In this document: positions 897 through 30,651 of the stretch, piece after piece
Numbering within the stretch: the stretch's first letter is position 1
Layout of the letters: every line of letters starts with the position of its first letter
Sequence record: SRR31156797_7246
DNA length: 34,101 nucleotides
Strand: one strand, 5' to 3'
The notes under the pieces: model-generated
The model's database searches: none
Told to the model about the DNA's origin: nothing
Seen by the model: the letters and a program-made list of their open reading frames with translations, nothing else
Program-made: the position numbers and the translations under genes

Positions 897-1282
897 TTGG
901 ATAAATTGTTCAACAGATGCATCTAACCGATAAAAAAGACGCCGCAGGGGTGCTCTCGACCGATGAGGAATTTAGACTCTCACCAGAGGACTAAGAATGC
1001 AGGCAGAGTAGGGTATATGTGCTTTGCCTGTATTACCCGCTCTTAAGTTTTATGGCTCCATATATTATGTTTGGTGAACCAGGCTATATTTCAAGCATTC
1101 TCTGTTTTTGTGTAACTTATTAAAGAAATTCTTCCCAGCTTACTCTTAAACCGAAAGGTACTTAAACTGTTCTGTTATATTTCTTCTTACTCTTTTTTAA
1201 TAGCACACCCTTTAAAAGGTTCGTGGTTCTAATATAATAAAGTTAAGGCATGTCTGTAAAAGTCTTTTGCAAAGGAGCCAGC

Positions 1283-10185: not shown

Positions 10186-10309
10186 CTTTTATGCCTCTGT
10201 GGCCAATAATAATTTGCGGGTAATTCACGGCAATCGTATTACAACAAATTGCCCAATCATAGAGCTTCTTGGTTCCAATGGCTCAGGAACAGAACCTTTT
10301 TTATATCAT

Positions 10310-13168: not shown

Positions 13169-13175
13169 GATCTTG

Positions 13176-14417: not shown

Positions 14418-14429
14418 AATCAACCTGGC

Positions 14430-16055
14430 TTAGTTGTTCTCTGGTTTCAGCCCATAAACGCCTTCATAAATCCATGAGGTGAATTGAATCTCATTGATAG
14501 TTTCACCCCAGGCAATTGGATACATTCCCTTCCATCTTTCCTGGAGGAATTTGGCTAAATCATCTTTTGCCTTGCCTGGTTCTCCCATGGCATCGCAAAG
14601 GAGTCCTGCTGCACGACAAGAGCATAGTTCTCCCTGACAGGTTCCCATGCCTACACGGGTACGGCGACGTAGATCAACAAGGTTGTTGACATGCAACTCT
14701 TCAATTGCATATTTCACTTCCCCGATTGAGACGCCTTCGCATTCGCAAACCATTGAGTCCTCAATATTGTCTCCGGTGGCAATGTTTTTGGCCAACGAAC
14801 CATGGCGATCCTGTGCCGATTTTTGGACAATGCTTTGGCCAGAATAGATTTTCTGGGCAGCGTACTTCATTGAAAAATCATCCTTTTCTGATCCAGGTAA
14901 TGGCTTTGCCGCGGTTTCGCAGTGTTTATCAACAGCCAGTTTTTTGCAGACCAAATCCGTTGCCCATTCAGCCATCAGACGATATGTCATTAATTTACCG
15001 CCGGTGATGGTTACAAAACCTGAAAGTCCATCACGCTCCTCGTGATCCAGTAAAACAATACCGCGACTAATGTTTCTGCCGGTTGGGTCATTGTCAGCAG
15101 CTACCAGCGGGCGGACACCTGCATAAGCCCGCAAGACACGTGTAGTCGCAAGGGACGGCGCAAGTTTCACGCCTTCTTGGATGAGCACATCAACGTCATC
15201 CTTAGTTACAAACATATTATCAATCTGGTCATAGGGTATGCGCTCTGATGTGGTTCCAATCAGACAGATAGTATCTCCTGGTACCAGAATATCTGCATTT
15301 GCAGGTTTTCGGCACCTGTTGAGGATCATTTTATTAACTCTATGGCCAAAGATGAGGAGGGAACCTTTAGCCGGAAACATTTTTACATTGACCCCGGCAA
15401 GGTTGGCTATATGCTGTCCCCAAATTCCTCCGGCATTTACGACTATATCTGCGTAATACTTAACCTTTTCATTGATCTTGTGATTTAACAGTTCCACCCC
15501 GACAATGCGGTTCTGCTCGCGGATAATCCCTGCAACCTCATGCTGAGTTAAGATCTCTGCACCATTAATTCTGGCGTCCAGCGCATTGGAAAGAGTAAGG
15601 CGAAAAGGGTCCACTGAACCGTCAGGAACCTTTACAGCGCCAATCAGGTTCGGATTGACAGACGGCTCGATCCGACGGGCCTCTTCAGGGGCAATCACCT
15701 CAGCATTGATACCTGCTTTTTGACAAGCGGTTACAAATTTTGACTGAAATGCGATATCATCATCGGGCAGGGTAATAAAAAGCCCATCGTTTTCTTCCAC
15801 ACAATGGCTGGCTATGGTGCGAAGCAGCATATTCTCTTTAATACACTCAGCTGCTGACTCATGATCGGTTACCGCATATCGTGCTCCGCTATGCAGTAAG
15901 CCATGATTTCGTCCTGTTGCTCCAGTGGCAAAATCACGTCGTTCCACAAGCAAAACGCTTAGCCCCCGCATGGCACAATCTCGTGCTGTTCCAGCTCCGG
16001 TTGCTCCGCCTCCGATGATTATCACATCGTATTCGTTGGTTTTGTTCTTGTTCAT
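14430..16055 (-). CDS. glpA: Anaerobic glycerol-3-phosphate dehydrogenase subunit A
   Basis: IGGGATGAG, GATGRNHGLLHSGARY, ITGGKLMTYRLMAE, and a C-terminal CECE...RRTRVGMGTCQGELC Fe-S domain. Confidence 0.96.
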   Translation of the reverse strand: MNKNKTNEYDVIIIGGGATGAGTARDCAMRGLSVLLVERRDFATGATGRNHGLLHSGARYAVTDHESAAECIKENMLLRTIASHCVEENDGLFITLPDDDIAFQSKFVTACQKAGINAEVIAPEEARRIEPSVNPNLIGAVKVPDGSVDPFRLTLSNALDARINGAEILTQHEVAGIIREQNRIVGVELLNHKINEKVKYYADIVVNAGGIWGQHIANLAGVNVKMFPAKGSLLIFGHRVNKMILNRCRKPANADILVPGDTICLIGTTSERIPYDQIDNMFVTKDDVDVLIQEGVKLAPSLATTRVLRAYAGVRPLVAADNDPTGRNISRGIVLLDHEERDGLSGFVTITGGKLMTYRLMAEWATDLVCKKLAVDKHCETAAKPLPGSEKDDFSMKYAAQKIYSGQSIVQKSAQDRHGSLAKNIATGDNIEDSMVCECEGVSIGEVKYAIEELHVNNLVDLRRRTRVGMGTCQGELCSCRAAGLLCDAMGEPGKAKDDLAKFLQERWKGMYPIAWGETINEIQFTSWIYEGVYGLKPENN

Positions 16056-16463: not shown

Positions 16464-17501
16464 ATGGCAAATATTGTTATCTGTGCAGATGGAACCTGGA
16501 ACCGACCAGAAGAAGACATCGAAAAGGATTTCCCGACCAATGTGTTGAAACTGTCTCGAGCGATTAAACCTTCAGCCAGTGGAGTCAAGCAGCATGTCTT
16601 TTACGATTGGGGTTTGGGCTCTTATCACAGCAGTATAAGCGCGGGGGCGACAGGGAGCGGTATTCATAAAAACATAATGGATGGATACCGTTACATTGTT
16701 CAGAATTATGCACCCGGTGATAAGATATTTCTTTTTGGCTTCAGTCGTGGCGCATACACCGTAAGGGCTTTAAGTGGTTTTATTAATAACTGTGGTATCT
16801 TAAAGCGACCAGATGCCAACTTAATTGCCAAAGCTTGGAAGATTTACAAGAGTCCAATGAAAAAAAACCGGCCAAATGAAGTCGCTGCCAGGGAATTTAG
16901 AGAGGAACACAGCCACCCCTCACGTAATGTCCATTTTGTAGGTGTCTGGGACACCGTTGGCGCTTTGGGTATTCCATTTAGTGTGATGGGGCTGCTTGAG
17001 AGCCATGATGAGTTCTATGACACCAAAATGGGGGCAAACATTTCGATTGCCCGTCACGCTTTGGCCATTGATGAGCAGCGTGAGGATTTCGAACCGACGA
17101 CATGGCTTCCCCGGGCTGGGGTTGATCTAAAACAGGTCTGGTTCGCAGGGGTACATGCAGACATTGGAGGGTCATATCCGCCAGATAAGAAAACCGGAAT
17201 TCGAGCATCTGACACCCCTCTCGAATGGATGCTGGACGAAGCGCATGATGCCGGCCTCATTATTGAGCCACATCTTCAAACCTCCATAACTGATGGCAGT
17301 CAGGGTAAATTGCACAAATCTCGTAAACATGTTTACCGACTCAAATCCCCATTGCATCGACCTCTAGTCATCAAAGATATACCCACCGAAATTCACCCAA
17401 GCGTGAAAAATCGTTACGTGGCAGATCCAAACTACCGACCGCCGAAATTAAAGGCATTGGTAGAAGAATACGGTTGGGAAAATTTGGCTATGAGCACATG
17501 A
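16464..17501 (+). CDS. DUF2235 alpha/beta hydrolase (Tle1-like catalytic domain)
   Basis: ICADGTWN, TNV, GFSRGAYTVR, VWDTVGALG, HALAIDEQR, WFAGVHADIGG; RBS AAGGAG. Confidence 0.9.
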   Translation: MANIVICADGTWNRPEEDIEKDFPTNVLKLSRAIKPSASGVKQHVFYDWGLGSYHSSISAGATGSGIHKNIMDGYRYIVQNYAPGDKIFLFGFSRGAYTVRALSGFINNCGILKRPDANLIAKAWKIYKSPMKKNRPNEVAAREFREEHSHPSRNVHFVGVWDTVGALGIPFSVMGLLESHDEFYDTKMGANISIARHALAIDEQREDFEPTTWLPRAGVDLKQVWFAGVHADIGGSYPPDKKTGIRASDTPLEWMLDEAHDAGLIIEPHLQTSITDGSQGKLHKSRKHVYRLKSPLHRPLVIKDIPTEIHPSVKNRYVADPNYRPPKLKALVEEYGWENLAMST

Positions 17502-17591
17502 ATCCTTAAAGGGTGTGAAATTGTTCTTATCGAACGATTATGTTGAAACGTAAAGTATCAAGATATCAACTCCGGATGGAGTTGTGACTGA

Positions 17592-17621
17592 AGAGTCCCC
17601 TGGAATTATCAGGGGGACTCT
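17592..17621. terminator. Probable terminator hairpin between convergent DUF2235 gene and gap
   Basis: Inverted repeat AGAGTCCCCTG...CAGGGGGACTCT. Confidence 0.7.
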
Positions 17622-17645
17622 ATTGTTTGGATGAATTTGCGGTTA

Positions 17646-18662
17646 TTACATTAAACTTCCCATGTGGTCTAATGTTCTTATTAATTGACTGACATAGCTC
17701 ATTTCATTGTCATACCAAGACACAACTCTAACCTCATAAATATTGGTTCCACAGCGTTGCGCAAGTGTTTGGGTGCTATCAAAAAGTGAACCATAGCTCA
17801 TACCAATTGTATCGCTAGACACCAGCTCTTCATCAGAATATCCAAAAGACTCATCTGCAGCCTTCATCATTGCTTCATTGAGTCCCTCAACACTGACAGA
17901 GTCGGTCTCATCTTTTAAGGTAGCATCAAGAATAGTGATTGAACCCGAAGCAACGGGTACCCGCTGTGCTGATCCAATCAGCTTGCCGTCAAGTTCAGGA
18001 ATGACAAGGCCAATTGCTTTTGCAGCACCGGTTGAATTGGGCACAATGTTGATTGCGCCGGCTCTCGCACGACGAAAATCACCCTTACGGTGCGGTCCAT
18101 CAATAATCATCTGGTCGCCTGTATATGCATGAATCGTAGTCATAAAGCCTGTTCTCAACTCACGATATTCATTCAATGCCTTTGCCATTGGAGCAAGGCA
18201 GTTGGTTGTGCAGGATGCGCCGGAAACAATGAGGTTGTCACTGGTTAGTGTATGATGATTGACCCCGTAAACAATGGTTGGAAGGTCACTGCCTGCAGGA
18301 GCTGAAATAAGCACCCTCTTGGCACCTGCATCAATGTGCGCCTGACTTTTGTCTTTGGAGCAGAAAAATCCTGTGCATTCTAAAACAATATCCACCCCAA
18401 GGCTGCCCCAAGGAAGATCTTTAGGATCTGCATCTTTGTAAACTCTGATTTGCTTACCGTCAATGATAAGAGAATCCTCATCACTCTCCACAGTATGTCC
18501 TGAAAAACGACCCTGTACGCTGTCATATTTCAGAAGGTGAGCAAGCATCTTTGGCTCTGTCAAATCATTAATTGCCACAACTTCAAAACGATCATCGGCA
18601 AAGATTTTTCGAAAAGTAAGTCTTCCTATTCTTCCAAAACCATTGATAGCAACTTTGAGCAT
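17646..18662 (-). CDS. gap: Type I glyceraldehyde-3-phosphate dehydrogenase
   Basis: [33 protein letters not shown]. Confidence 0.97.
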
Positions 18663-18840
18663 CGCATTTCCTCCTAATATATTATTTGGTGAGGTGACAG
18701 GAAATCGTTTCTTAAAAACGGATCGGTAAAGTCAAATTGGGATTTTGAAACTCATTCCCCACCTGTTTTGATCAAAAAAAATCTTATGTCACAAGCACGT
18801 TCACTGATATCCGTCGGCAAAAGTGGGGAAAAACATCACA

Positions 18841-20682
18841 CTATTCTACCGTTACACTTTTAGCGAGATTTCTAGGCTGATCCACATCACAACCAAGTCT
18901 TGACGCAATTTCATAGGATAGGAGTTGCGCTGGAATGGTGTAGAGTATTGGGTTCATTGCCTCTGTTACTTCCGGTAAAAAGATAACCTCCTCTGAGATA
19001 TTTTCAAGGTGATCATCTCCTTCAGTACCGAAGAGAATAATCCTGCCCTGGCGAGCTTTAACCTCTTCAATATTTGAGATGGATTTCTGGTAGACTCTAT
19101 CACGCGGTACAAAGGCCACCACTGGCATTTCTTTGTCAATGAGTGCAATTGGCCCGTGCTTGAGCTCTCCAGAAGCATACCCTTCCGCGTGGATGTATGA
19201 TATTTCCTTGAGTTTCAACGCACCTTCTAAAGCGATTGGAAAATTGAGACCTCTGCCTACAAAAAGAAAATCACGGGCATGATAATATTCTTCAATAAGC
19301 ACCTTGATCTTTTCCTGAAGTTTTGGCGTCTCATTCTCGATCACCGCAGCAATTTTAATAAGCTCTTTGCCAAGGCTTACCCTTTCTTCAAGTGGAATTG
19401 TTTCTTTTACCTGCCCCAGATGCAAGGTGAACAGGAATAAGGCCGATAGCTGCGAAATGAAAGCTTTGGTTGAAGCTACCCCGATTTCTGGTCCCGCATG
19501 CGTATAAATGGTGCCGTCAGCCTCTCTGGTCATTGTTGAACCAACGACATTACACACAGTAATGACCTTTGAGCCTAGTCCTTTGGCTATTTTGACTCCG
19601 GCAAGTGTATCGGCGGTTTCTCCTGACTGTGACAGGGCAACAGTAAGGACCCGTTCATCGATAAGTAGATCCCGATATCTAAATTCTGAGGCAATATCGA
19701 CCTCAACCGGTATACGGGCGTATTTTTCAATCCAGTATTTTGCAACAAGAGCAGCATGGAGAGAAGTCCCGCAGGCAACAAAAACAATCCGGTCGATAGT
19801 ATCGATCTCTGATGCGATAAAGCTGATTTCCGGTATGTTCACCTCACCTGTTTCAGGGGTGATTCTACCGCTTATGGTATTGGTGATTGCCTGAGGCTGC
19901 TCATAGATTTCCTTGAGCATAAAGTGCTTATACCCAGCCTTCTCGGCCATGGCAGAGTTCCACTCAATGGTCTTGACTGGTTTCTCAAGCAGTTGACCGC
20001 TCGTAAGGGAATACACCTCATGACTTTTTTCTGTGAGAATCGCCAACTCCATATCATTAAGATAAATGACCTGGTTGGTGTATGGGAGCAAAGCGGGAAC
20101 GTCAGAGGCGATAAACCTTCCGGCTTCTTCGCTTACGCCAATAACCAGTGGGCTCTGGTTTCGCACGGTAATAAGGGTATCTGGCATGCCGGTCCACATC
20201 ACCCCAATTGCAAACGAACCCTCCAGTAAACTTACGGCCTTTTTTACGGCAGAGAGCAGGTCTTTTTCAAGGTGCTCTTCAACGAGGTGGGCAATAACCT
20301 CGGTATCGGTCTCAGAACTGAACTGATGACCATTTTGCTTTAAATATTCACGCAGGGAGTGGTAGTTCTCAATAATCCCATTGTGCACCACAACTATCTC
20401 TCCACTGCAATCGCTGTGTGGATGTGCATTTTCTGTGGTTGGAGCGCCATGGGTTGCCCAGCGGGTATGGCCAAGACCAATATGCGAGTTGGCTATTATG
20501 TCGTCGCCAATGATGTTTTCCAGGTTTGCAAGTTTCCCTTTTGACCTGTGTTTCACCATCTTCCCTTGATCAAGGTAGACGACACCTGCGGAGTCATATC
20601 CCCTATATTCAAGGCGTTTGAGTCCTTCAAGGATGACGGGTACAACCTTTTTAGGACCGCAATAACCAACTATTCCACACAT
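18841..20682 (-). CDS. glmS: Glutamine-fructose-6-phosphate aminotransferase (isomerizing)
   Basis: MCGIVG, LEYRGYDSAG, GHTRWATHG, SQSGETADT, ELKHGPIAL, PRNLAKSVTVE. Confidence 0.97.
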   Translation of the reverse strand: MCGIVGYCGPKKVVPVILEGLKRLEYRGYDSAGVVYLDQGKMVKHRSKGKLANLENIIGDDIIANSHIGLGHTRWATHGAPTTENAHPHSDCSGEIVVVHNGIIENYHSLREYLKQNGHQFSSETDTEVIAHLVEEHLEKDLLSAVKKAVSLLEGSFAIGVMWTGMPDTLITVRNQSPLVIGVSEEAGRFIASDVPALLPYTNQVIYLNDMELAILTEKSHEVYSLTSGQLLEKPVKTIEWNSAMAEKAGYKHFMLKEIYEQPQAITNTISGRITPETGEVNIPEISFIASEIDTIDRIVFVACGTSLHAALVAKYWIEKYARIPVEVDIASEFRYRDLLIDERVLTVALSQSGETADTLAGVKIAKGLGSKVITVCNVVGSTMTREADGTIYTHAGPEIGVASTKAFISQLSALFLFTLHLGQVKETIPLEERVSLGKELIKIAAVIENETPKLQEKIKVLIEEYYHARDFLFVGRGLNFPIALEGALKLKEISYIHAEGYASGELKHGPIALIDKEMPVVAFVPRDRVYQKSISNIEEVKARQGRIILFGTEGDDHLENISEEVIFLPEVTEAMNPILYTIPAQLLSYEIASRLGCDVDQPRNLAKSVTVE

Positions 20683-20737
20683 TTTTTGTTCCTTTTAAAC
20701 GTATTCACACTCATTAAATGTACGTAATGTACTTTGC

Positions 20738-21718
20738 TCAATACTGTCCAGCGCTGCCGAGTACATTTATGTTTTTCTCTTTGATAAGCTTGATAAGTTC
20801 GTCTCTTGCTGGCCCAAGGTACTTGCGCGGGTCAAATTCTGCAGGGTTTTCACCAAATACTTTGCGGATGATAGCAGTCATCGCCAAGCGTCCGTCACTA
20901 TCTATATTAATCTTACACACAGCGGATTCTGCCGCACGGCGAAGCTGTTCAGCTGGAATACCAACAGCACTCTCAAGGTTGCCTCCGTACGCATTGATCA
21001 TGTCAACATGCTTAGGGGTAACAGAAGAAGCGCCATGCAAGACGATTGGATACCCTGGAAGAAGCGTTTCAATTTTATCTAAAATGTCAAAGCGCAACGG
21101 GGGAGGCTGCTCACCAGGTGCCAACTTGAATTTATGTGCCCCATGGGATGTCCCGATCGATATCGCAAGGCTATCCACACCGGTTTTACCCACAAATTCT
21201 TCTACCTCTTCCGGCTTTGTGTAATGCGAAACTTCTGAGGAAACCTCATCTTCAATCCCGGCCAGTACGCCAAGCTCTCCTTCTACCGTTACATTATATT
21301 TATGTGCGTATTCTACCACCTCTCTGGTAAGCCGCATGTTTTCTTCAAAAGAATGATGTGAGCCATCAATCATGATTGATGAAAAGCCATAATCAATACA
21401 ATCCTTGGCCAGCTCAAAGGTGGAGCCATGATCAAGGTGCAAGGCTATGGGAATCGTGCTGCCCATATCCCTTGCCATCGCAACAGCTCCTTGCACCATA
21501 TGGGGTAAAAAAACAGGGTCTGCATACTTTCTGGCGCTGCCTGAAACCTGAAGAATAACAGGGGAGTTGGACTGAGCACACCCTGTGACAATAGCCTGCA
21601 GCTGCTCCATATTGTTAAAATTATATGCAGGGATTGCGTATTTTCCCTGCATTGCCTTGGTAAACATCTCTTTGGTGTTAACCAGGCCAAGATTTTCATA
21701 TCGAATTGGATTTGTCAT
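20738..21718 (-). CDS. fba: Class II fructose-1,6-bisphosphate aldolase
   Basis: ALHLDHG, MIDGSH, VEGELGVL, GTSHGAHK, VLHGASS, KINIDSDGR, FDPRKYLG. Confidence 0.95.
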   Translation of the reverse strand: MTNPIRYENLGLVNTKEMFTKAMQGKYAIPAYNFNNMEQLQAIVTGCAQSNSPVILQVSGSARKYADPVFLPHMVQGAVAMARDMGSTIPIALHLDHGSTFELAKDCIDYGFSSIMIDGSHHSFEENMRLTREVVEYAHKYNVTVEGELGVLAGIEDEVSSEVSHYTKPEEVEEFVGKTGVDSLAISIGTSHGAHKFKLAPGEQPPPLRFDILDKIETLLPGYPIVLHGASSVTPKHVDMINAYGGNLESAVGIPAEQLRRAAESAVCKINIDSDGRLAMTAIIRKVFGENPAEFDPRKYLGPARDELIKLIKEKNINVLGSAGQY

Positions 21719-21806
21719 AATGAATCTCCATTACGTATCTGGATAATGAAACAGGGTGATTGTATACCGTATACTGCTGTTGTTTTATGAAATCATAACA
21801 AACCTG

Positions 21807-22736
21807 TTATATCTCTCTTAGCTGAACCTGTGATAACAGTTCGTTTACCTGCTCACGGGTACCAACTGATGTGCCTTTTTGGCTGGCAGTGGCAGCTCCA
21901 CAGGCAATTCCTTTACAGAGGGCACCCTGCATACTATCGCCGCAGCTGAGTCCCCAGACAACCCCGGCAACCATGGAGTCTCCAGCCCCGATGGGGTTGG
22001 CAGTAACTATTTTGGGGCTGGCTGCCAACCATGCCTTGTTTTTATCGACCAATACAGCTCCCTTTTCTCCAAGGGAGATAATTACACTAGCAGGGCCCAT
22101 GGCTGAGATTGCATTACCAACTGCTGCTATCTCTGCGGGAGTGTTAACAGGCAGCCCGGTAAGCTCATGTGCTTCTTCATCATTGGGTTTAACAAGCAAA
22201 GGCTTGGATCCGCAGTTTTGGCGTAAGGCCTCGTCGCTGGTATCGAGAAATACCTTTGCTCCGGCTGACTGGATGATGCTAATCAGCTCAGTATAGTATG
22301 TAGGCGGAACCCCGGGAGGCAGACTTCCGGCAAGCACCCACCAGTCTCCGGCCTGAACCCAGTCGCCTATTTTTTGTGCCAGTTGCGCAAGATCAGCCTC
22401 AGTGATGGTCGGCCCAGGCTCATTGACTTTTACATAGCGGCCGTTTTCACTGCTTACTATACTCACGTTGGTGCGGGTGTCACCTTCCACCCAGACGAAA
22501 TCAGTCTCAATTCCCAGTGATTGGAGCTTCTCACTCAGCATTTCCCCATTTTTACCAGCAGCAAAACCCAACGCCACACTCGATATGCCCAGTGATTTGA
22601 GCATGCGGGCAACATTGAACCCTTTTCCGCCGCAATCCACCCGCCACTCCGAAGCGCGCAGGACTGTATCAAACGCAATCTCGTCAACCGTTAATTCCCG
22701 GTCAACTGCTGGATTGAGTGTTACAGTGAATATCAT
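21807..22736 (-). CDS. fruK: 1-phosphofructokinase-family hexose kinase (PfkB/FruK/LacC group)
   Basis: MIFTVTLNPAVD, GGKGFNVAR, TRTNV, AGSLPPG, VKPNDEEA, IGAGDSMVAG. Confidence 0.85.
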   Translation of the reverse strand: MIFTVTLNPAVDRELTVDEIAFDTVLRASEWRVDCGGKGFNVARMLKSLGISSVALGFAAGKNGEMLSEKLQSLGIETDFVWVEGDTRTNVSIVSSENGRYVKVNEPGPTITEADLAQLAQKIGDWVQAGDWWVLAGSLPPGVPPTYYTELISIIQSAGAKVFLDTSDEALRQNCGSKPLLVKPNDEEAHELTGLPVNTPAEIAAVGNAISAMGPASVIISLGEKGAVLVDKNKAWLAASPKIVTANPIGAGDSMVAGVVWGLSCGDSMQGALCKGIACGAATASQKGTSVGTREQVNELLSQVQLREI

Positions 22737-22739
22737 ATC

Positions 22740-24476
22740 TCACCCCTTCCAGTATTTTTCAAAAAGTGCTTCCTCAGCCTCTTGAGTCCACATATTTCCA
22801 GGTTCAAGTTTCTCCGCTACTTCTGGTAGAATGTCTGCAAGCTCATCTAAACCTATTAACGGTAAATCCTCTATCTGCGGAAAGATGACTATCTTTCCGG
22901 CATACTTTCCTTCGATAACCGCCTGGATACCTTCCTTGGCCACATTCATTCCGCCGATCGCCCCAACACTGCGGCCGGGGGAAAGCGAACCAAGAGACGC
23001 CTGGCTGAGCACCTGTCGCTGATCGTCCAGGGTGAGGCCGGAAGTTCCCGTGTACTGGCCATTACTCATGTAGACGTTACTCAGATTCATGGGTGCCATG
23101 GTACCGTTTGGTACGCCCGCAAAGAAAACGAGCATACCGTTTTCATTCATCAGAGTATCGCCTTCTGCCATTACACCCGCAATGGGAACACTGACAACGA
23201 CATCATCGGCTCCTTTTCCATCAGTTGTCGCCATAACAAAATCATGGAGTGACTGCTGGTTTGTCTGGGGGTTAAAGGTGAGCAGCTTCCTTCCGTTCTT
23301 TTCTGCCAGTGGTGCGAAACGATCTTTGATCGCATCAAGGCGCTGGTCGCTTACCTCTGTGGCAATGACTGTTGTTGGTCCATCGGGCAGTTCAAGTGCT
23401 CTCTGGACGTGCATCTGACCCATAGGGCCGCCGGCACCGACAAAGACTGTGGTGCCATTGGGGAGCAGTTCGCATCTGTTGCGTTTTTCGCCATAGGATG
23501 CTGCGATATCCGGGCCTTGGTTGCCGAGATAGGCTGTATAGTCGTAGTGGAGGCGACCGACATCTGTATCGACCAGTCCATCCAGCGGGGTTTTGCCGAC
23601 CATATTCATGGTTCCCCGACGGGCTATAAACTTAGCTGCAGTGCCAACAACCTCGGCGGAGCGAGGATCGAGCATGACAATATCATCATAACCGTTGCCG
23701 TTGGTGAACTCCTTGGCCAAATCATCGAACTGATCAACGGTGATACCGTTACGAACCTCTACCCTGGCAGATGTCTTCTCGGCAAGTTCGGCAATGGCTT
23801 CCGGCACGTCAGAGAGGATGATGACAGCAGGAGCATCCAAACCTTTGGAAAAGGTGTATTGGGCAGTGTCCCCAGGAGTGCCGATTATCCACATCACACC
23901 GCCTTGTTTAGGATCCAGGCGCCTGCGCTGGGTGTAGGCTGCCAGAACACATCCCCATGGTTCTAGAAGCGATGCCTCGGCATATCCCAAGGATTCGTCA
24001 ACCGGCAGCAGACACTCTCCCTCGTCAGTCTCAAGCATTTCCGGGCCGATCAGGTGATACTGGATAAGACCGCCTGGGATAGTGTACCCGTACGCGGTAC
24101 TCTTACCGTCCTGGTAGATATCAGGCTGTACCGCCACACGCTGTCCCGAACTGTATTTTCCCTTCAACTCTTCACCCACTTTAACGATCGTAAGGGCCGC
24201 TTCATGACCAAGTCTGGTCGGCTCTTTAGTGAGATCACGGTTGTACAGTTTTGGGTGTTTCCTACCCATATTGATTAACTTTACATCGGAAAAACAGAGT
24301 CCAACACTGTCAACTCGTACCAGTAGTTGGTTTGCCCCAGGTGTTGGCACTGAGAAAGGTTCAGGTTTTCCATTTTTTCCTATATTCTCTTCACCTGCTC
24401 CGTACATGTTCCATGTAAGGTTTTTTTTAGGTAAGTCGAGGTCGACCGTATGGTATCGATTGTATTGTGATGTCAT
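22740..24476 (-). CDS. Zinc-dependent MDR dehydrogenase, L-sorbose-1-phosphate reductase (SorE)-like, with duplicated Rossmann domain
   Basis: Catalytic Zn ligands GLC61FSD, LGH91E and LE172PWGC; no structural-Zn Cys cluster; GAGGPMG nucleotide-binding motif; 578 aa with an internal repeat. Confidence 0.85.
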   Translation of the reverse strand: MTSQYNRYHTVDLDLPKKNLTWNMYGAGEENIGKNGKPEPFSVPTPGANQLLVRVDSVGLCFSDVKLINMGRKHPKLYNRDLTKEPTRLGHEAALTIVKVGEELKGKYSSGQRVAVQPDIYQDGKSTAYGYTIPGGLIQYHLIGPEMLETDEGECLLPVDESLGYAEASLLEPWGCVLAAYTQRRRLDPKQGGVMWIIGTPGDTAQYTFSKGLDAPAVIILSDVPEAIAELAEKTSARVEVRNGITVDQFDDLAKEFTNGNGYDDIVMLDPRSAEVVGTAAKFIARRGTMNMVGKTPLDGLVDTDVGRLHYDYTAYLGNQGPDIAASYGEKRNRCELLPNGTTVFVGAGGPMGQMHVQRALELPDGPTTVIATEVSDQRLDAIKDRFAPLAEKNGRKLLTFNPQTNQQSLHDFVMATTDGKGADDVVVSVPIAGVMAEGDTLMNENGMLVFFAGVPNGTMAPMNLSNVYMSNGQYTGTSGLTLDDQRQVLSQASLGSLSPGRSVGAIGGMNVAKEGIQAVIEGKYAGKIVIFPQIEDLPLIGLDELADILPEVAEKLEPGNMWTQEAEEALFEKYWKG

Positions 24477-24509
24477 GGTTATCTCCTAGGAGTGTTAAAA
24501 TGTTATATG

Positions 24510-27140
24510 CTACAACAGATCGTCGTTAATTTTATACAACTCCATAATGGCTTCTGAACTTTCCAGTTCTAATGCTTTACTGGCTTTTTCTTGTAATTTA
24601 CTATAGTTTACTGCGCGGATAATATTTTTCACCGCCCCCACATTGGCGGGGCTGACGGACAGTTCACTTACCCCCAATCCGACCAGAAGTGTTGCGAGAT
24701 TAGGATTTGCCGCCGCATTGCCGCACACACCAACCCATTTGCCATGGGCCTGTGCACCTTTTACCGTCATCTCAATCATTTTCACCAATGCGGGATGGTA
24801 ACTGTCCGCTTCATTACAAAGCTCAGAATGCCCGCGATCTATGGCCAACGCATACTGGGTTAAGTCATTGGATCCGATGGAAAAGAAATCCACTTCCTTG
24901 GCCAAATGCTCTGCAACCATCACCGCTGACGGCACCTCAATCATGATACCCAACGGTAGTTGGGGAGCGTTTAACTGCGTACGAACACTCTCGGCAATAT
25001 CTCGCGCTTTTTGCCACTCCGACATTCTACCGATCATGGGAAACATAATGTGCATCCCGGTTGATCCGGTTGTCTCTTGCTGCCAGAGTGCGGTCTGGTA
25101 AATGGCTTCCAGTTGACGCCTGAACATGTCTTCATATTTAAACGAAAGGCGGATTCCCCGCATGCCCAGGAACGGGTTTTCTTCATGGGGGATATGCATC
25201 CAGGACACAGGTTTGTCTCCGCCAATATCCGCCGTACGCACGATCAACTGGCGATTGCCAAGTTGCAGGGCAATAGTTTTGAGACTCTCGCATTGCTCTT
25301 CAACTGATGGTTCAGCATGGGAAGATTCAAAAAGAAATTCTGTCCGTAACAGGCCCACACCTTCGCCGCCATGTTCCAAAACAAGTTTCGCGTCTTCAGG
25401 TTTGGCGATATTACATACGACCTCGATGTAGTGACCATCAAGTGTTTCAGCAGCTTTATGTTTTTGAGAATCTTCAGCTTTGCGGATCTGGTCCCACTGC
25501 TCAACCCATTTCAACCCGTTTTTCTGGGTAGCTTCATTGGGGTCAACGTAAATGGATGATGCCTGAGGATCGACTATAATCAAATCACCATCCACAATGT
25601 TCTCAAGACTCTCCTCGCCCAGGCCAACCACGGCCGGAATTCCCAGGGCCCTGGCAAGGATCGCCATATGACTGTTGGGGCCACCAAGTTCAGTACAGAT
25701 GCCGCGAACCTTCAGCCCGTGCAAACCGGCTGTTTGGGAAGGTGTTAAATCTTTTGCCATTAAAACGAAATCGTCTTGCGGATACTCAACAGCTGATGCC
25801 GCAGGCACCATCAGGGCCAATACCCGATCACGCACATCGATCAGGTCGGCAATTCTTGCCCTTAACCGCTCGTTGTCAACCGTTTTCAATGATTCAACCT
25901 GCTTTTCAATGGCTTGGTGGAAAGACCAGGCCGCTGTTTTCCCATTGAAAATGGATTTTTCGCAGTCGGTTAGTACAAGTTCGTCCTGCAGCAATTGCTT
26001 TTGAGCATGTAAAATAGCTGCTTCTTTTGGCGCCCTGGTTTGCAGGTTGGCTTGCAGTTCATCCAGTTGATGTGCGGCCTCTGTCAGAGCAGTGCCAAAA
26101 AGATTGGCCTCGACCTTAGGGTCTTTTGCATCCACCTCATACTTTATCTTTCCGACCTGTAATCGAAATGCAGGTGCCATGGTAATACCAGGTGATGCAG
26201 CCGAACCACTTATCGTCTTGCGACACCCAACGTCGGGCAGAGCGGACAAAACCGTTAAAGGGTTATAAGATGCACTGTCCTGTTCATCATCGTCGTCCAA
26301 TCCCTGATTAATCATTTTAGCCAGAACTTGAACGGCCTGCTGCGCCTCAGGCCCCTCAGCGGATACTATCAGAGCATCGCCTTGACTTGCGCCCATGGCT
26401 AAAAGAGATGCCATGGATTTAGCAATTGCTGTTTTCTGATCGTTTCGAATGCGAATATCTGTTCCTGGAAATTTTGCAGCCTGTTCTGAAATTAAGCTGG
26501 CGGGGCGGGCATGCATCCCTTGAGCGTCAACAACCTTGGCCTCTTTTGTAACAAAATAGTCTTCCAGTTGTTCGGCAGGTGCCTGCTTCACGTCGTTCAG
26601 CGCATTCAGAATATCCGTTTTGTCGGTTGTGGTTGCAAGTTGGTCGGCTAAAGTTTCATCCATAACCACATTGGTCAACCGTTCGAGTAGTTTCAAATGG
26701 TCTTTGCCCTTTGCCGCAATACCTACGATCAGACGAGCTACGTCTCCCTTGTCATTCCAGGTGACGCCTTGGGGTGCCTGTACAATAAAAACACCGGTTT
26801 GTATCACCTGCTCTTTTGCTTCGTTTACACCATGTGGGATTGCTACTCCATTAATCAGGTAGGTGCTGACTTTTTCTTCACGCCCAACCAATGCTTCCAA
26901 ATAGTCTCCACTGACGAGACCTAAAGATGACAAGTTTTGAGAAATCAGCTCCAGCACATCGTCCTTAGTCGCCACTTGGGCATTTAATAAAATCTGGGCA
27001 GGATTTACCGTCAGAGTATCTTCCGCAGCAGCTTTGGTATCTTGCGGCGCGGATGCCTGAACAACTTCCTCGGATACTTCAGGTTTCTCTGTGATCTCTG
27101 ATTTTTCTTGACCACCGAGCAATTTTTTAAAAAAAGACAT
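24510..27140 (-). CDS. PTS multiphosphoryl transfer protein: EIIA(Fru/Mtl)-HPr-Enzyme I fusion
   Basis: EIIA STYLINGVAIPHG; HPr GMHARPA...AKS; EI GGPNSHMAILARALGIPAVVG, VGLLRTEFLF, SIGSNDLTQY. Confidence 0.93.
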   Translation of the reverse strand: MSFFKKLLGGQEKSEITEKPEVSEEVVQASAPQDTKAAAEDTLTVNPAQILLNAQVATKDDVLELISQNLSSLGLVSGDYLEALVGREEKVSTYLINGVAIPHGVNEAKEQVIQTGVFIVQAPQGVTWNDKGDVARLIVGIAAKGKDHLKLLERLTNVVMDETLADQLATTTDKTDILNALNDVKQAPAEQLEDYFVTKEAKVVDAQGMHARPASLISEQAAKFPGTDIRIRNDQKTAIAKSMASLLAMGASQGDALIVSAEGPEAQQAVQVLAKMINQGLDDDDEQDSASYNPLTVLSALPDVGCRKTISGSAASPGITMAPAFRLQVGKIKYEVDAKDPKVEANLFGTALTEAAHQLDELQANLQTRAPKEAAILHAQKQLLQDELVLTDCEKSIFNGKTAAWSFHQAIEKQVESLKTVDNERLRARIADLIDVRDRVLALMVPAASAVEYPQDDFVLMAKDLTPSQTAGLHGLKVRGICTELGGPNSHMAILARALGIPAVVGLGEESLENIVDGDLIIVDPQASSIYVDPNEATQKNGLKWVEQWDQIRKAEDSQKHKAAETLDGHYIEVVCNIAKPEDAKLVLEHGGEGVGLLRTEFLFESSHAEPSVEEQCESLKTIALQLGNRQLIVRTADIGGDKPVSWMHIPHEENPFLGMRGIRLSFKYEDMFRRQLEAIYQTALWQQETTGSTGMHIMFPMIGRMSEWQKARDIAESVRTQLNAPQLPLGIMIEVPSAVMVAEHLAKEVDFFSIGSNDLTQYALAIDRGHSELCNEADSYHPALVKMIEMTVKGAQAHGKWVGVCGNAAANPNLATLLVGLGVSELSVSPANVGAVKNIIRAVNYSKLQEKASKALELESSEAIMELYKINDDLL

Positions 27141-27275
27141 AATGATCTCCTTTAAAATTGTGTCGATCCTTGAACAGGTCCAACGCCTGCGGCATTACTG
27201 CCACCGCATTAGCAATAACATCTACCCGAGCATCCCATGACCATTTCTGGTGAGAAGCTCGGGCTAACAGAGCCG

Positions 27276-28655
27276 TTATACCAGTTTGGCTACCAAGTCA
27301 TCATAGAAGCTGGCGTCCATGAAGTTATCGATGCTAAAATGTTGAGCATTGGGTAATTGGGTTCGGGCCCGATCCGTCAACTCATTCTGGGTTATGACGA
27401 TGTCCGCATCTTTCAGGTCATTAATAGCTTGGTTGGTAACTTCAATATCTAAGCCGGCATCATTAATCTTGCCCCTCAGTACTGTGGCTCCCATGGCCGA
27501 TGAGCCCATGCCGGCATCGCAAGCCACCACAATTTTTCGAATACTTTTCGCCGCGACAGGAGTCGCCTGTCCTTTTGCTTCGGACTTACTTGCTGCAACA
27601 GCAGCTGTGGCAGCATCCAGGTCATCACTTTCAGAAGCATCTGTGCGAATGAGTAAGGCTCCAATGAGGAACGAAGTGAAAGCGGACAAGGCAATGGAAC
27701 TCAAGGTCAAGACAATACCCATTCCTTTTGTGGACATCAGGGTTAACGCAAATACAGAACCCGGAGATGGAGGACCAACCAAAGCGTTACCTGTGAACAT
27801 GTTAAAACCAACGCCCACCATACCACCAGCGATCACAGCAACAATCAATCGTGGCTTCATTAAAATATAAGGAAAATATATTTCATGAATGCCGCCCAGG
27901 AAATGAATGATGGATGCGCCATAGGCTGATTTTTGTGCAGTGCCTTTACCAACAACCATATAAGCGATGAGGATACCCAAGCCAGGGCCGGGGTTGGTTT
28001 CTATCAGGTAGTAAATGGAAGAACCGACATTAGCTGCTTGTTCTGCGCCCAAAGGCGTAAAGACGCCATGGTTGATGGCGTTGTTTAAGAATAGAATTTT
28101 TGCAGGTTCTACAATGATTGACACCAGAGGCAAGAGGGACATGTCGACAATCCAGCCTACGCCCTTTGCCAGTGCCGCTGTAATTACAGAAACGACCGGG
28201 CCAATTACCACGTAGGCAATCAAGGCTATCAACATGGAGATGATGCCGAGAGAGAAGTTGTTGACCAACATTTCAAACCCAGGTTTGATTTTACCGTGGA
28301 CCTTCTCGTCGAATTTCGTTATCGCCAGACCTCCCAGTGGACCAGCAATCATGGCACCCATGAACATTGGAATGCCACCACCGACAATGACCCCCATTGT
28401 CGTAACGGCACCTGCTACGGCACCGCGGTCACCACCGATCATCTTGCCACCGGTATAACCGATCAATAGAGGCAGCAAGTACGTAATCATAGGACCAACC
28501 AGTGACGCTAATTGTTCGTTAGGCAACCAACCTGTTGGTATAAAGAACGCAGTAATTAACCCCCAAGCGATAAATGCCCCAATATTTGGCATTACCATAC
28601 CACTTAAGAACCTTCCAAATGACTGAACACCTACCTTCACAGCATTAGCGGACAT
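27276..28655 (-). CDS. mtlA: PTS mannitol-family transporter subunit IICB
   Basis: VQSFGRFLSGMVMPNIGAFIAWGLITA, EPAKILFLNNAINHG, ETNPGPGLG, GGIHEIYFPY, and the EIIB motif VACDAGMGSSAMGA. Confidence 0.95.
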   Translation of the reverse strand: MSANAVKVGVQSFGRFLSGMVMPNIGAFIAWGLITAFFIPTGWLPNEQLASLVGPMITYLLPLLIGYTGGKMIGGDRGAVAGAVTTMGVIVGGGIPMFMGAMIAGPLGGLAITKFDEKVHGKIKPGFEMLVNNFSLGIISMLIALIAYVVIGPVVSVITAALAKGVGWIVDMSLLPLVSIIVEPAKILFLNNAINHGVFTPLGAEQAANVGSSIYYLIETNPGPGLGILIAYMVVGKGTAQKSAYGASIIHFLGGIHEIYFPYILMKPRLIVAVIAGGMVGVGFNMFTGNALVGPPSPGSVFALTLMSTKGMGIVLTLSSIALSAFTSFLIGALLIRTDASESDDLDAATAAVAASKSEAKGQATPVAAKSIRKIVVACDAGMGSSAMGATVLRGKINDAGLDIEVTNQAINDLKDADIVITQNELTDRARTQLPNAQHFSIDNFMDASFYDDLVAKLV

Positions 28656-28670
28656 AAACGGACCTCCTCA

Positions 28671-28782
28671 TTACATGGTTAACAAATTCTCCATAATCAA
28701 ATCCCAGGTGATGAATGCATCAATGTTGGGGGATGATTATTTCTCTTGGCGAGCCACCAAATTTTTGAGTTGTTTCTTGCTT
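28671..28782 (-). pseudogene. Degenerate remnant of a second mtlA 5' end
   Basis: Minus strand reads KQETTQKFGGSPREIIIP/NIDAFITWDLIM with one extra C in the C5 run (plus-strand G run 28728-28732). It aligns to MtlA KVGVQSFGRFLSGMVMPNIGAFIAWGLIT. Confidence 0.7.
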
Positions 28783-28895
28783 TTGAGACTCCCTTTCTCG
28801 TGGGTTTGTGTAAGTTAGCCACACTCCTTACTTTTTTTTAGGTAATTCGATTGGCCTTTTCCGTGAAACTTTCACTGTCAGTGTCATTTTTAAGT

Positions 28896-28925
28896 ACTGT
28901 AAACGATTACAATATAAAGTGTCAA
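28896..28925 (-). promoter_or_regulatory. Sigma70-type promoter of the PTS operon
   Basis: Minus strand TTGACA-N18-TACAGT, about 240 bp upstream of mtlA. Confidence 0.65.
28898..28911. promoter_or_regulatory. LacI-family operator O1
   Basis: Near-palindrome TGTAAACGATTACA with central CG, overlapping the -10/spacer of the mtlA promoter. Confidence 0.8.
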
Positions 28926-29049
28926 TATTTTTTTGCACAGATATCTAGTGTTCAAGGTGTAATTCTTTGTTTTTCTTATGTGCCTGTTGTTTCATAATTT
29001 GTGTTGGTGTGGTGGCAGGGTGTAGCGTGAGCTGATACTGAAAGGACTA

Positions 29050-29063
29050 CGTAAACGTTTTCA
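29050..29063. promoter_or_regulatory. LacI-family operator O2 (auxiliary)
   Basis: CGTAAACGTTTTCA, similar to O1 and O3. Confidence 0.55.
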
Positions 29064-29269
29064 TTAAAAGGTGTAGCGTGATGAGCTGGAACCGCTGTGG
29101 CTACACGTTTGTTTGCCTACCTGTATTGTGTGATACATAACGTGGACCTCATCTGTTGTTGCTTTTTTCAGGTATTTGTCAGGTAGCGGGAGAGATTTGC
29201 TCATACTCATTTATTCCTGCAGTACAGCTATGTTTACGCACTGCATTAAGTTAAAAGCAGTGAAATTGT

Positions 29270-29298
29270 TTGACGTTGATATTGCAAACGATTACATT
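29270..29298 (+). promoter_or_regulatory. Sigma70-type promoter of the LacI gene with embedded operator O3 (29283-29296)
   Basis: TTGACG-N17-TACATT containing TGCAAACGATTACA, which matches O1 at 13 of 14 positions. Confidence 0.75.
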
Positions 29299-29345
29299 GA
29301 TTGTGTCCGTCAGATTTTTTCCCACGAAAGATTGAAGAGGTATTA

Positions 29346-30347
29346 ATGGTTAAAATTAAAGATGTTGCTGATGCGGCAGGTGTGTCAACAGCGACAGTTT
29401 CCAGGGTCTTGGCGAACAAACCCCACGTGCGACCTGAAGTGCAGCAACGTGTAATGGAGGTAGTAGAAAAGCTGAATTATCGGCGAAACAGGGTTGCTCA
29501 GAATCTTCGTTCAAACACCTCAAAGATTATTGCCTTGATAGTTTCCGATATTGAAAATCCATTCTTTCAACGGGTCAGCAGGGCTGTAGATGATGTCGCC
29601 TTTGCACAAGGTTACAGTGTTATGCTCTGTAATACCGATGAGAACCCCGATAAAGAAGAAACCTCCCTGAATCTTCTTCGAGATGAAAATGTAGCCGGTA
29701 TCATTTTCTCTCCAACTCGGCAAACCATCGACAACTTTGCAGAAAGTTTTGATCTTAACATACCGATGGTGATAATTGACCGGCATGTATACAATTTTGA
29801 CGTTGATAATGTTCTGATAGATAACGTGCAGTCAGCCCACACTCTGACAAGCCATTTAATAGAGCAAGGCTATAAACGGATAGGCGCTCTCTTTGGGAAG
29901 GGCAGCACAACCGGTCGGGAAAGGCGCGAGGGCTTTGTGCAGGCATTAAAAGACCATAAAATCAAGCCGGTTAACGACATCGTTAAATACACCAATCCCA
30001 GAGAAGAGGACGGGTATAACACGGCCATGAAGCTGTTGGAAATGCAGGATAGACCTGAGGCTATATTTACAAGCAACAGCCTGCTGGCAGCAGGGGCTCT
30101 TCTGGCAATTCGTGAAAGCAAGCTGGAAATCCCCAAAGATATTGCCCTGGTAAGCTTTGATGATACAACATGGGCAAAGTTAGTGGAACCTGCACTAACG
30201 GTTATTGAACAACCAACTTATGAAATCGGGCGTACTGCAGCTGAGCTTCTTATTAAACGGATTCAGGATCCAACTCGTTCAAACCGTGAGGTTGTTCTCA
30301 AAACAAAGTTAATTATTCGAGAATCTTGCGGTTCCTTAAACCGGTAA
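29346..30347 (+). CDS. LacI-family transcriptional regulator
   Basis: IKDVADAAGVSTATVSRVL HTH, YRRNRVAQNL hinge, ENPFF, IPKDIALVSFDD, LTVIEQP. ATG 29346 follows GAAGAGG. Confidence 0.95.
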   Translation: MVKIKDVADAAGVSTATVSRVLANKPHVRPEVQQRVMEVVEKLNYRRNRVAQNLRSNTSKIIALIVSDIENPFFQRVSRAVDDVAFAQGYSVMLCNTDENPDKEETSLNLLRDENVAGIIFSPTRQTIDNFAESFDLNIPMVIIDRHVYNFDVDNVLIDNVQSAHTLTSHLIEQGYKRIGALFGKGSTTGRERREGFVQALKDHKIKPVNDIVKYTNPREEDGYNTAMKLLEMQDRPEAIFTSNSLLAAGALLAIRESKLEIPKDIALVSFDDTTWAKLVEPALTVIEQPTYEIGRTAAELLIKRIQDPTRSNREVVLKTKLIIRESCGSLNR

Positions 30348-30651
30348 CATTGAATGCATAGGGTTTGTTATGTGTTGTCGTTATAAAGAAAATACGTAAC
30401 CCTTTTGTGTGAAAAGTCTATCTGGCCAATGGTATAATGCAATATAGAATCCTCGAACAAGAAAGGGAGTTATCTATTCCGATCGATTTATGAGATTGGT
30501 GCTCGACCCTATTAATTTCTTGACAGTGTGTCTCTCTCCAGATAGCGTAACATGCTGAGAAAAGGGGGGAACCGTTAGTGCTTTTCCGTTGGTTGGCGGT
30601 CGAGGCGACTGGTGCCCATGGATTCACATTCTATTTAAGAGGGACTTAATA

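Follow-up and report, generated by a model that had tools for sequence, protein, structure and literature searches.

How might mannitol be degraded by a bacterium that carries a mannitol-type permease of the phosphotransferase system (PTS) but no mannitol-1-phosphate 5-dehydrogenase (MtlD)? This question is raised by a 34,101-nucleotide stretch of DNA from sequence record SRR31156797_7246 (hereafter the window), in which the locus analysed, at positions 17646-30347, holds seven co-oriented genes on the minus strand (17646-28655) and a divergent gene for a LacI-family repressor. The catabolism of mannitol through MtlA and MtlD is textbook knowledge, and annotation pipelines infer the use of mannitol from mtlD. 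In the route that we propose for this locus, phosphoenolpyruvate would phosphorylate a fused Enzyme I (EI)-HPr-EIIA protein, which in turn would phosphorylate the IIB domain of an MtlA-type IICB permease, and mannitol would be brought in as mannitol-1-phosphate (mannitol-1-P). A 578-residue dehydrogenase would oxidise C2 of mannitol-1-P, the carbon next to the phosphate, with NAD+ as the acceptor, and the fructose-1-phosphate (fructose-1-P) formed would be converted by FruK to fructose-1,6-bisphosphate. We consider it fairly probable that the locus is an operon for mannitol catabolism, self-contained and controlled by LacI, through which carbon reaches glycolysis via fructose-1-P; the substrate, the regiochemistry, the preference for NAD+ and the control by LacI are what we infer. 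A first-pass annotation had already read the locus as leading from mannitol-1-P through fructose-1-P to fructose-1,6-bisphosphate. The core of that reading was upheld by all the comparative tests that we ran; what did not stand was the inclusion of the downstream genes fba and gap among the parts that the route explains.

A mannitol-type PTS cluster without MtlD

Genes were assigned to families by comparing Pfam and NCBIfam profile scores with the curated cut-offs. The first gene of the run (27276-28655, minus strand) codes for a 459-residue IICB of the mannitol family, of the MtlA type and without a IIA domain, which scores above both mannitol cut-offs (TIGR00851 mtlA, 484.9 against 468.4 bits; NF011663, 700.4 against 589). 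It is 61% identical to Escherichia coli MtlA over residues 1-459, with the IIB cysteine stretch VACDAGMGSSAMGA aligned, and 50% identical to E. coli CmtA. The second gene (24510-27140, minus strand) codes for an 876-residue fusion of a fructose/mannitol-type EIIA, HPr and EI, with matches to PTS_EIIA_2 (residues 46-183), PTS-HPr (197-278) and PEP-utilisers_N/PEP-utilizers/PEP-utilizers_C (312-845) in Pfam, and to TIGR01417 (467.9, cut-off 341.7). AIPHG, GMHARPA, GGPNSHMAI and VCGN, which we take to be phosphorylation-site motifs, all occur in its translation. The fusion can be classed as a multiphosphoryl transfer protein and is predicted to carry a complete phosphorelay on one chain.

The third gene (22740-24476, minus strand) codes for the 578-residue dehydrogenase, a zinc enzyme of the medium-chain dehydrogenase/reductase (MDR) superfamily that belongs to the SorE/YggP clade and matches ADH_N and ADH_zinc_N. 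The fourth, fruK (21807-22736, minus strand), reaches the 1-phosphofructokinase equivalog TIGR03828 (336.8, cut-off 292), and its product stays below the cut-offs of the sister kinases (PfkB-II, 158.6 against 353; LacC, 177 against 469 and 160 against 410). As the stop codon of the dehydrogenase gene ends at 22740 and the ATG of fruK is at 22736, the two genes are separated by 3 bp, and FruK would probably be translationally coupled. The genes fba, glmS and gap complete the run. ORF (open reading frame) coordinates and family profiles bore out what had been noted for the locus at first sight, that is, the genes from the IICB to gap with their order, strand and coordinates, and the 3-bp gap between dehydrogenase and kinase.

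The reported absence of MtlD and MtlR from the window was likewise confirmed: with the E. coli proteins as tblastn queries, the best match in the window had E = 1.3, and no window ORF scanned with Pfam contained the N- or C-terminal domain of Mannitol_dh. At least 565 relatives were found in species-representative genomes, and the best 80 loci were examined, to which all counts out of 80 refer; none of them matched MtlD or MtlR at E <= 1e-3. The gene arrangement of the window is not a matter of chance, because the same core recurs in these 80 loci of other genomes. The first-pass annotation had called for a survey of mtlA, the SorE-like gene and fruK occurring together in genomes without mtlD. 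An MtlA-like IICB lies within the flanks of 70 of the 80 loci, EI within those of 66 and fruK within those of 62, directly downstream and on the same strand in 31. In the window and in the 13 loci of the Desulfobulbales clade (L001-L013), fruK and the dehydrogenase gene are 3-8 bp apart. Among the ten loci without an MtlA-like match, the upstream flank is shorter than 2.7 kb in seven, and another, L057, has a truncated HPr-EI remnant together with an IS110 transposase. Two loci from metagenome-assembled genomes (MAGs) of Actinomycetota, L014 and L019, have full 10-kb flanks around the dehydrogenase gene without an MtlA-like, EI or FruK match; a Pfam scan of five ORFs of L014 returned only a release-factor-like domain.

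The 80 loci span three phyla, Thermodesulfobacteriota, Actinomycetota (mostly Nocardioides) and Chloroflexota. In Nocardioides ganghwensis, an operon with the order EI-dehydrogenase-mtlA-EIIA and a canonical deoR-fruK-fruA unit are placed back to back, an arrangement that would fit a shared fructose-1-P intermediate. Of 119 genomes in the family to which one of the Desulfobulbales genomes (G001) belongs, three have the dehydrogenase, and the same three have MtlA; of 201 genomes sampled from the order, G001 alone has the dehydrogenase. The rare and patchy occurrence of the module within this order tells us little about what it does. In a quick tree, to be read with care because of its long outgroup branches, the Actinomycetota rows fall inside the Thermodesulfobacteriota rows and the Chloroflexota rows are basal; this nesting, together with the patchy distribution, points to lateral spread of the module. 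The enzyme of the window is found in a starred clade of five rows, together with that of Desulfopila aestuarii.

Mannitol_dh was also sought with Pfam in 15 cluster-bearing genomes, five each from Desulfobulbales, Nocardioides and Chloroflexota. MtlD was found in none of the 15, and 14 had no match to the Mannitol_dh family; the sole match, in D. aestuarii, is a 492-residue tagaturonate reductase (657 bits, cut-off 359) adjoining a 2-keto-3-deoxygluconate kinase. FruK was found above its cut-off exactly once in each of the five Desulfobulbales genomes, and always as the copy beside the dehydrogenase. Three of these genomes (G002, G003 and G005) have no EIIC of family PF02378 other than the MtlA-like protein, and therefore no FruA-type fructose PTS that could supply FruK with fructose-1-P.

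One of these three genomes, that of D. aestuarii DSM 18488 (locus L003, genome G002), has an intact cluster, no MtlD, a single PF02378 EIIC and a single FruK, and its dehydrogenase is 81% identical to that of the window. Mannitol is listed for this strain among the electron donors used with sulfate (PMC8497536, Table 2). The same source lists mannitol as not used by strains IMCC35004 and IMCC35005 and by Desulfotalea psychrophila DSM 12343 (PMC8497536), and a table in another gives Desulfopila inferna as negative for mannitol and sorbitol (PMC13761340). With its sole PF02378 EIIC of the MtlA type and its use of mannitol, D. aestuarii lends indirect support to mannitol as the likely substrate of the IICB.

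The dehydrogenase and its proposed reaction

The Pfam domains of the dehydrogenase, ADH_N at residues 47-140 and ADH_zinc_N at 353-490, leave about 210 residues between them. When the protein was aligned with E. coli YggP (425 residues), residues 41-321 paired with YggP 19-316 (30% identity) and residues 332-575 with YggP 167-416 (26%); with Klebsiella pneumoniae SorE, residues 39-321 paired with 18-312 and residues 339-572 with 176-401. Since two parts of the protein align with the one cofactor domain of YggP or SorE, this domain is present twice in tandem, with copies at about 185-321 and at 332-500, and the C-terminal tail is common to all three proteins. In the domain alignment, copy 2 retains GPMG, FFAG and GTSG and is without the His-Tyr pair; conversely, copy 1 is without these three motifs and retains the His-Tyr of the 'VHY' motif of SorE and YggP. 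The duplication was not detected by a self-BLAST of the 578-residue protein and is visible only via SorE and YggP. In an alignment of 65 sequences of the family, down to 28% identity, the invariant residues are C61, E92 and E172 of the zinc site, H310 and Y311 in copy 1, and G347, G350 and G353 in copy 2, and 90% or more of the sequences keep H91; the zinc ligands (Cys, His-Glu and Glu) align with those of YggP and SorE. Judged by its sequence, the enzyme is a clear case of internal domain duplication, in which the two copies keep complementary motifs. An AlphaFold2 model (predicted local distance difference test score 95.6) has the fold class of polyol/threonine dehydrogenases. A search of the PDB by sequence and by fold returned generic MDR matches only, and no solved structure of the SorE/YggP type or with the duplication was found there.

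The dehydrogenase had been described as SorE-like. The term is right as a clade label, because the family profile picks out YggP and SorE far above other MDR proteins: in E. coli K-12, YggP scores 147.9 + 99.9 bits and the next MDR protein 56.5, and in the K. pneumoniae record SorE scores 123.4 + 99.6 bits and the next MDR protein 20.5. YggP and SorE are 46% identical to each other. The window's enzyme also shares with SorE (of the sor systems of K. pneumoniae and E. coli and of the Lactobacillus casei type) the zinc-ligand positions, the GPMG, DVHY and GTSGG motifs and the C-terminal tail. The term does not extend to the architecture, however, for the usual one catalytic and one cofactor domain in about 410-425 residues (410 in SorE) are not what is found in the 578-residue enzyme with its duplicated domain. 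Among 8000 candidates scored, 3075 proteins match the family at E <= 0.001; a separate search gave 293 representatives at E <= 1e-30. Desulfobulbales (Desulfogranum marinum, Desulfopila aestuarii, Desulforhopalus and MAGs) supply the nearest homologues of the window's enzyme, at 76-85% identity.

In passages of two papers (PMC12817954, PMC13410766), SorE is described as forming D-glucitol-6-P from L-sorbose-1-P by reduction of the keto group at C2. By our own derivation from Fischer projections, D-glucitol-6-P numbered from the phosphate is L-gulitol-1-P, which differs from D-mannitol-1-P at C5 only, and C5 is also the sole difference between L-sorbose and D-fructose. As the substrates of SorE and those proposed here differ only at C5, the same hydride delivery on fructose-1-P would yield the manno and not the gluco product; the stereochemical argument first made for this locus is sound by this bookkeeping. 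We propose that the dehydrogenase is a mannitol-1-P 2-dehydrogenase forming fructose-1-P, and that its reaction would be that of SorE reversed on the C5 epimer, the reacting carbon and the stereochemical outcome being unchanged. That it acts on a ketose-1-phosphate/hexitol-phosphate pair at all we infer from gene context only. A preference for NAD+ is suggested by E374, an acidic residue that follows the second strand of the functional cofactor domain. Among the papers searched, none on a mannitol-1-phosphate 2-dehydrogenase or a fructose-1-phosphate reductase was found. In 1984, Sprenger and Lengeler reportedly observed that SorE also reduces fructose-1-P to mannitol-1-P, which we do not use as evidence.

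SorE itself is described as a reductase (in the same passages of PMC12817954 and PMC13410766), and the host lineage of the window is apparently from marine sediment, where osmolytes matter. The enzyme could thus work reductively in vivo as well, turning fructose-1-P into mannitol-1-P, a reduction that would act as a redox sink or lead towards mannitol as a compatible solute. We regard this as very improbable: the cluster includes no phosphatase and no fructose-specific permease, FruK would compete for fructose-1-P, the permease is of the MtlA type, and the acidic residue in the cofactor domain suggests NAD and not NADPH.

It is also conceivable, if unlikely, that another polyol or ketose is imported (D-glucitol, another hexitol, fructose or L-sorbose), the phosphate of which would be interconverted by the dehydrogenase with a ketose-1-phosphate for the PfkB kinase. 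E. coli CmtA has no proven substrate, so that membership of the permease family does not fix specificity; moreover, L-sorbose-1-P is the compound on which the SorE clade acts according to the two sources just cited, and a glmS paralogue is attached to the cluster. On the other side, the IICB is nearer to characterised MtlA than to CmtA and lies above the mtlA cut-offs, and D. aestuarii, with the cluster and a single EIIC, uses mannitol by the table entry in PMC8497536. SorE-type stereochemistry on fructose-1-P would, by our derivation, lead to mannitol-1-P and not to glucitol-1-P. A sorbose route would require a glucitol-6-P dehydrogenase, which is absent from the cluster, and would leave FruK idle. 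Finally, the kinase passes the 1-phosphofructokinase equivalog and fails the tagatose-6-phosphate kinase models.

Several points weigh against the route from mannitol-1-P via fructose-1-P. We found no assay of any member of the dehydrogenase family, the substrate and product of which are deduced here, and the window's enzyme is only 25-30% identical to SorE and YggP. The absence of MtlD covers the window and the genomes of its relatives, the full genome behind the window lying outside this search. The mannitol phenotype comes from a single entry in a taxonomic table and concerns a single strain, and the genome of D. aestuarii was not searched for a mannitol 2-dehydrogenase of the MDR or the short-chain dehydrogenase/reductase (SDR) type with a fructokinase. 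None of the strains tabulated as mannitol-negative is among the best 80 loci, which is weak evidence, as these strains were not searched by name. Two of the five Desulfobulbales genomes, G001 and G004, hold a second EIIC beside a second EI fusion, a possible other feed for FruK. Phosphofructokinases of the PfkA type (PF00365) are present in all five, two or three per genome; a route via fructose-6-phosphate (fructose-6-P) would therefore be workable too, and that via fructose-1-P is not forced. By the same count, we rejected the idea that a lack of phosphofructokinase accounts for the use of fructose-1-P. Lastly, 18 of the 80 loci are without fruK in their flanks, about 13 of them with full flanks.

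The fructose-6-P-using phosphofructokinases and the loci without a nearby fruK also favour another reading, namely that the 578-residue enzyme is a non-homologous replacement for MtlD, a mannitol-1-P 5-dehydrogenase yielding fructose-6-P. FruK would then be there for some other reason, such as the entry of fructose via another system or a promiscuous fructose-6-P kinase activity. GatD, another MDR enzyme, oxidises a hexitol-1-phosphate at C5, away from the phosphate, and the fruK of Nocardioides belongs to the canonical deoR-fruK-fruA unit. Nevertheless, we hold a replacement of MtlD to be quite unlikely. In the three of five genomes without another PF02378 EIIC, FruK would have no source of fructose-1-P, yet fruK has been kept 3-8 bp from the dehydrogenase gene in the window and in L001-L013. 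In addition, the enzyme groups with SorE and YggP, which act next to the phosphate, and the kinase scores as a 1-phosphofructokinase and not as PfkB-II.

With formation of fructose-1-P as the preferred reading, the locus is PTS-dependent hexitol catabolism in a variant form and not a new kind of system. With the canonical mtlA-mtlD-mtlR operon of E. coli it shares an MtlA-type permease and, presumably, the first product, mannitol-1-P. It differs from that operon in having neither MtlD nor MtlR, in the fusion of IIA to HPr-EI and not to the permease, in its LacI-type regulator, and in its proposed use of fructose-1-P and FruK as opposed to fructose-6-P and PfkA. In the fruB-fruK-fruA operons of Pseudomonas and Rhodobacter, a fused EIIA-HPr-EI and FruK are encoded together and entry is via fructose-1-P; here, in contrast, the permease is of the MtlA and not the FruA type, and a dehydrogenase step would be inserted between uptake and FruK. 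The partners of SorE are a mannose-family PTS, the genes of which adjoin genuine SorE genes, and an SDR-type glucitol-6-P dehydrogenase, and SorE feeds fructose-6-P and not fructose-1-P.

The E. coli K-12 cluster cmtB-cmtA-yggP-yggF-fumE-yggC resembles the window in that a mannitol-family IICB (CmtA) lies directly beside a SorE-clade zinc dehydrogenase (YggP) and MtlD is lacking, a core that is also kept in Photobacterium. It is followed by epd (a gap paralogue)-pgk-fbaA, much as fba and gap follow in the window. In E. coli, however, YggP has 425 residues and one cofactor domain, FruK is absent and YggF (fructose-1,6-bisphosphatase II), FumE and YggC, a P-loop protein, are encoded instead, EIIA is not part of a fusion, and the genes for EI and HPr lie outside the cluster. 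Genes for yggF, fumE (yggD) and yggC, present in E. coli and in part in Photobacterium, were not found in the window. Because the cmt-yggP cluster is itself uncharacterised, it explains nothing alone. Its position before epd-pgk-fbaA (L082, K-12 3068000-3083000) may be a coincidence or a recurrent placement.

New here are the Desulfobulbales version with its triple fusion, the tie to a mannitol phenotype published as a table entry, a FruK that, in some genomes, has no other source of substrate, the pair of operators and the paralogous glmS. Mannitol is a major storage compound of algae and fungi in sediments and soils. If the proposed route is real, mannitol would be used by organisms annotated as non-users, including sulfate reducers usually thought to use few sugars; a conserved dehydrogenase family now annotated only generically would have a function; and the long-unexplained cmt-yggP genes of E. 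coli would gain a testable one. Cultured carriers of the cluster exist (D. aestuarii DSM 18488 and several Nocardioides type strains), which makes the question directly testable. A broader reading, which we put forward as tentative and rather doubtful, combines these elements. The enzyme would be a single-chain 'pseudo-dimer', the tandem cofactor copy taking the place that the domain of the partner subunit has in MDR dimers, with copy 2 binding NAD and copy 1 keeping only its His-Tyr; with FruK, it would form a general fructose-1-P route for mannitol, the main one in parts of three phyla and also encoded by the 'cryptic' cmt-yggP genes of E. coli. The GlmS paralogue would channel fructose-6-P into cell-wall synthesis at times when carbon comes in below this intermediate.

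Regulation and downstream genes

The gene for the LacI-family repressor is divergent from the operon, as noted at first, and only its start had to be corrected. ATG 29346, preceded by GAAGAGG and giving a protein that begins MVKIKDVA, is more likely to be the start than TTG 29301, from which the mechanical ORF runs, so that lacI would occupy 29346-30347 on the plus strand. The protein has LacI helix-turn-helix and Peripla_BP_1/3 domains in Pfam. No NCBIfam equivalog was reached; the best models were RbsR/PurR/CytR-like, at about 235 bits and below their cut-offs. Eleven of the 13 loci L001-L013 likewise have a divergent gene for a LacI homologue.

Two candidate operators lie between lacI and mtlA. 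The first, O1 (28898-28911), is TGTAATCGTTTACA, a near-palindrome of the form TGTAA-N-CG-N-TTACA. It shares positions with the spacer and with the first part of the second hexamer of a candidate promoter-like site (28896-28925, minus strand; TTGACA, 18 nt, TACAGT), which has 10 of 12 matches, is located about 240 nt upstream of the mtlA start and is the only 10-of-12 site upstream of mtlA. The second, O2 (29283-29296), reads TGTAATCGTTTGCA on the minus strand, with one mismatch to TGTAATCGTTTACA, and precedes the probable lacI ATG by about 50 bp. Within two mismatches of TGTAATCGTTTACA, only O1 and O2 were found in the 34-kb window. The search counted three matches where 0.33 were expected, a number reached in 2 of 100 shuffles; the count is three for two sites because the palindromic site scores on both strands. 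With at most one mismatch, TGTAANCGNTTACA occurs at 28 sites in loci L001-L015, 27 of which are just upstream of mtlA, in the lacI-mtlA intergenic region where lacI is present. Twelve of the 13 loci L001-L013 have such a site, and the remaining one, L009, is without that region. These observations suggest a typical LacI-family operator pair, through which the repressor would act on the operon and on its own gene. Over positions 17000-30500 as a whole, promoter-like sites (21, against 19.8 in shuffles) and terminators (12, against 12.5) were not in excess.

The spacer between mtlA and the EIIA-HPr-EI gene (27138-27283, minus strand) is predicted to be structured, with a minimum free energy of -50.7 kcal/mol (z = -3.22; none of 200 shuffles folds as well). 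By eye, a hairpin of differing sequence is found at the same place in five of eight aligned sequences, those of the window and four of seven relatives. RNAalifold gave no conserved consensus in the hairpin region of this alignment (-3.25 kcal/mol overall, one compensatory pair). The spacer may be an intercistronic stabiliser or an attenuator. At the other end of the run, a strong hairpin follows gap (17593-17621, minus strand), in a 116-nt stretch (17540-17655) that folds at -30.7 kcal/mol (z = -4.70; 0 of 200 shuffles), and its stem was also picked up on the other strand by the terminator scan. This hairpin is the probable end of the transcription unit. In the fruK-fba, fba-glmS and glmS-gap spacers no fold exceeded the shuffles (z = -0.66, -0.23 and +1.22), and read-through into fba-glmS-gap is possible. 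A scan of the whole window with Rfam gave no match at the gathering score.

The last three genes, all on the minus strand, are fba, for a class II fructose-bisphosphate aldolase (20738-21718; NF005481, 574 against a cut-off of 511), glmS (18841-20682; TIGR01135, 812 against 418) and gap, for a type I glyceraldehyde-3-phosphate dehydrogenase (17646-18662; TIGR01534, 403 against 367). Among relatives, the order of genes after fruK varies: fba-gap, gap alone, glmS or nothing. In G001 and G003, no full-scoring aldolase gene was found besides the fba next to the cluster, whereas G004 and G005 have their aldolase gene at another place. Where gap follows the cluster, in seven relatives, it is 91-96% identical to that of the window, the genes of the cluster being 72-91% identical. 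Relatives have three to five Gp_dh_C matches each, with the gap paralogue of the window's type in single copy, located elsewhere in G004. Being single-copy, and adjacent to the cluster in some genomes only, fba and gap look like housekeeping neighbours, and the first-pass claim that the route explains them was not borne out. A dedicated role of fba and gap in the pathway was accordingly rejected as the main reading; most likely, the two are housekeeping genes beside which a laterally spread module sits.

The glmS gene, for which the first-pass annotation offered no explanation, is of another kind. At 81-82% identity, it is closer to the copies adjacent to the cluster in L012 and L001 than to the stand-alone GlmS of G004 and G001 (67-68%). 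The cluster-adjacent glmS of L001 (12788-16287) is split by an insertion sequence (IS)/DDE transposase gene, and a whole copy is found elsewhere. This pattern of identities, together with the two copies of L001, indicates a second, cluster-linked paralogue in some lineages, and the glmS of the window is such an accessory paralogue.

Other genes in the window

Between gap and a run of glpABC-like genes, a lone 345-residue ORF (16464-17501, plus strand) has the catalytic domain of a Tle1-like phospholipase effector of type VI secretion systems (PF09994, E = 2.2e-84); no other type VI secretion genes were seen in the window. The three-gene run itself (11909-16055, minus strand) resembles the anaerobic glycerol-3-phosphate dehydrogenase GlpABC, with DAO and BFD 2Fe-2S, FAD_binding_2, and CCG and Fer4_8 domains. 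At lower coordinates lie paired DNA glycosylase genes (9589-11509, minus strand), one for a methyladenine glycosylase (Adenine_glyco) and one AlkZ-like, and a gene for a 788-residue CitMHS-type transporter with four inserted TrkA_C domains (7018-9384, plus strand). A 449-residue ORF without a Pfam match (3396-4745) neighbours a gene for a 664-residue protein (1250-3244, plus strand) in which residues 353-477 form a ligand-binding domain of neurotransmitter-gated ion channels (PF02931), making it a prokaryotic relative of pentameric ligand-gated channels with a long N-terminal extension.

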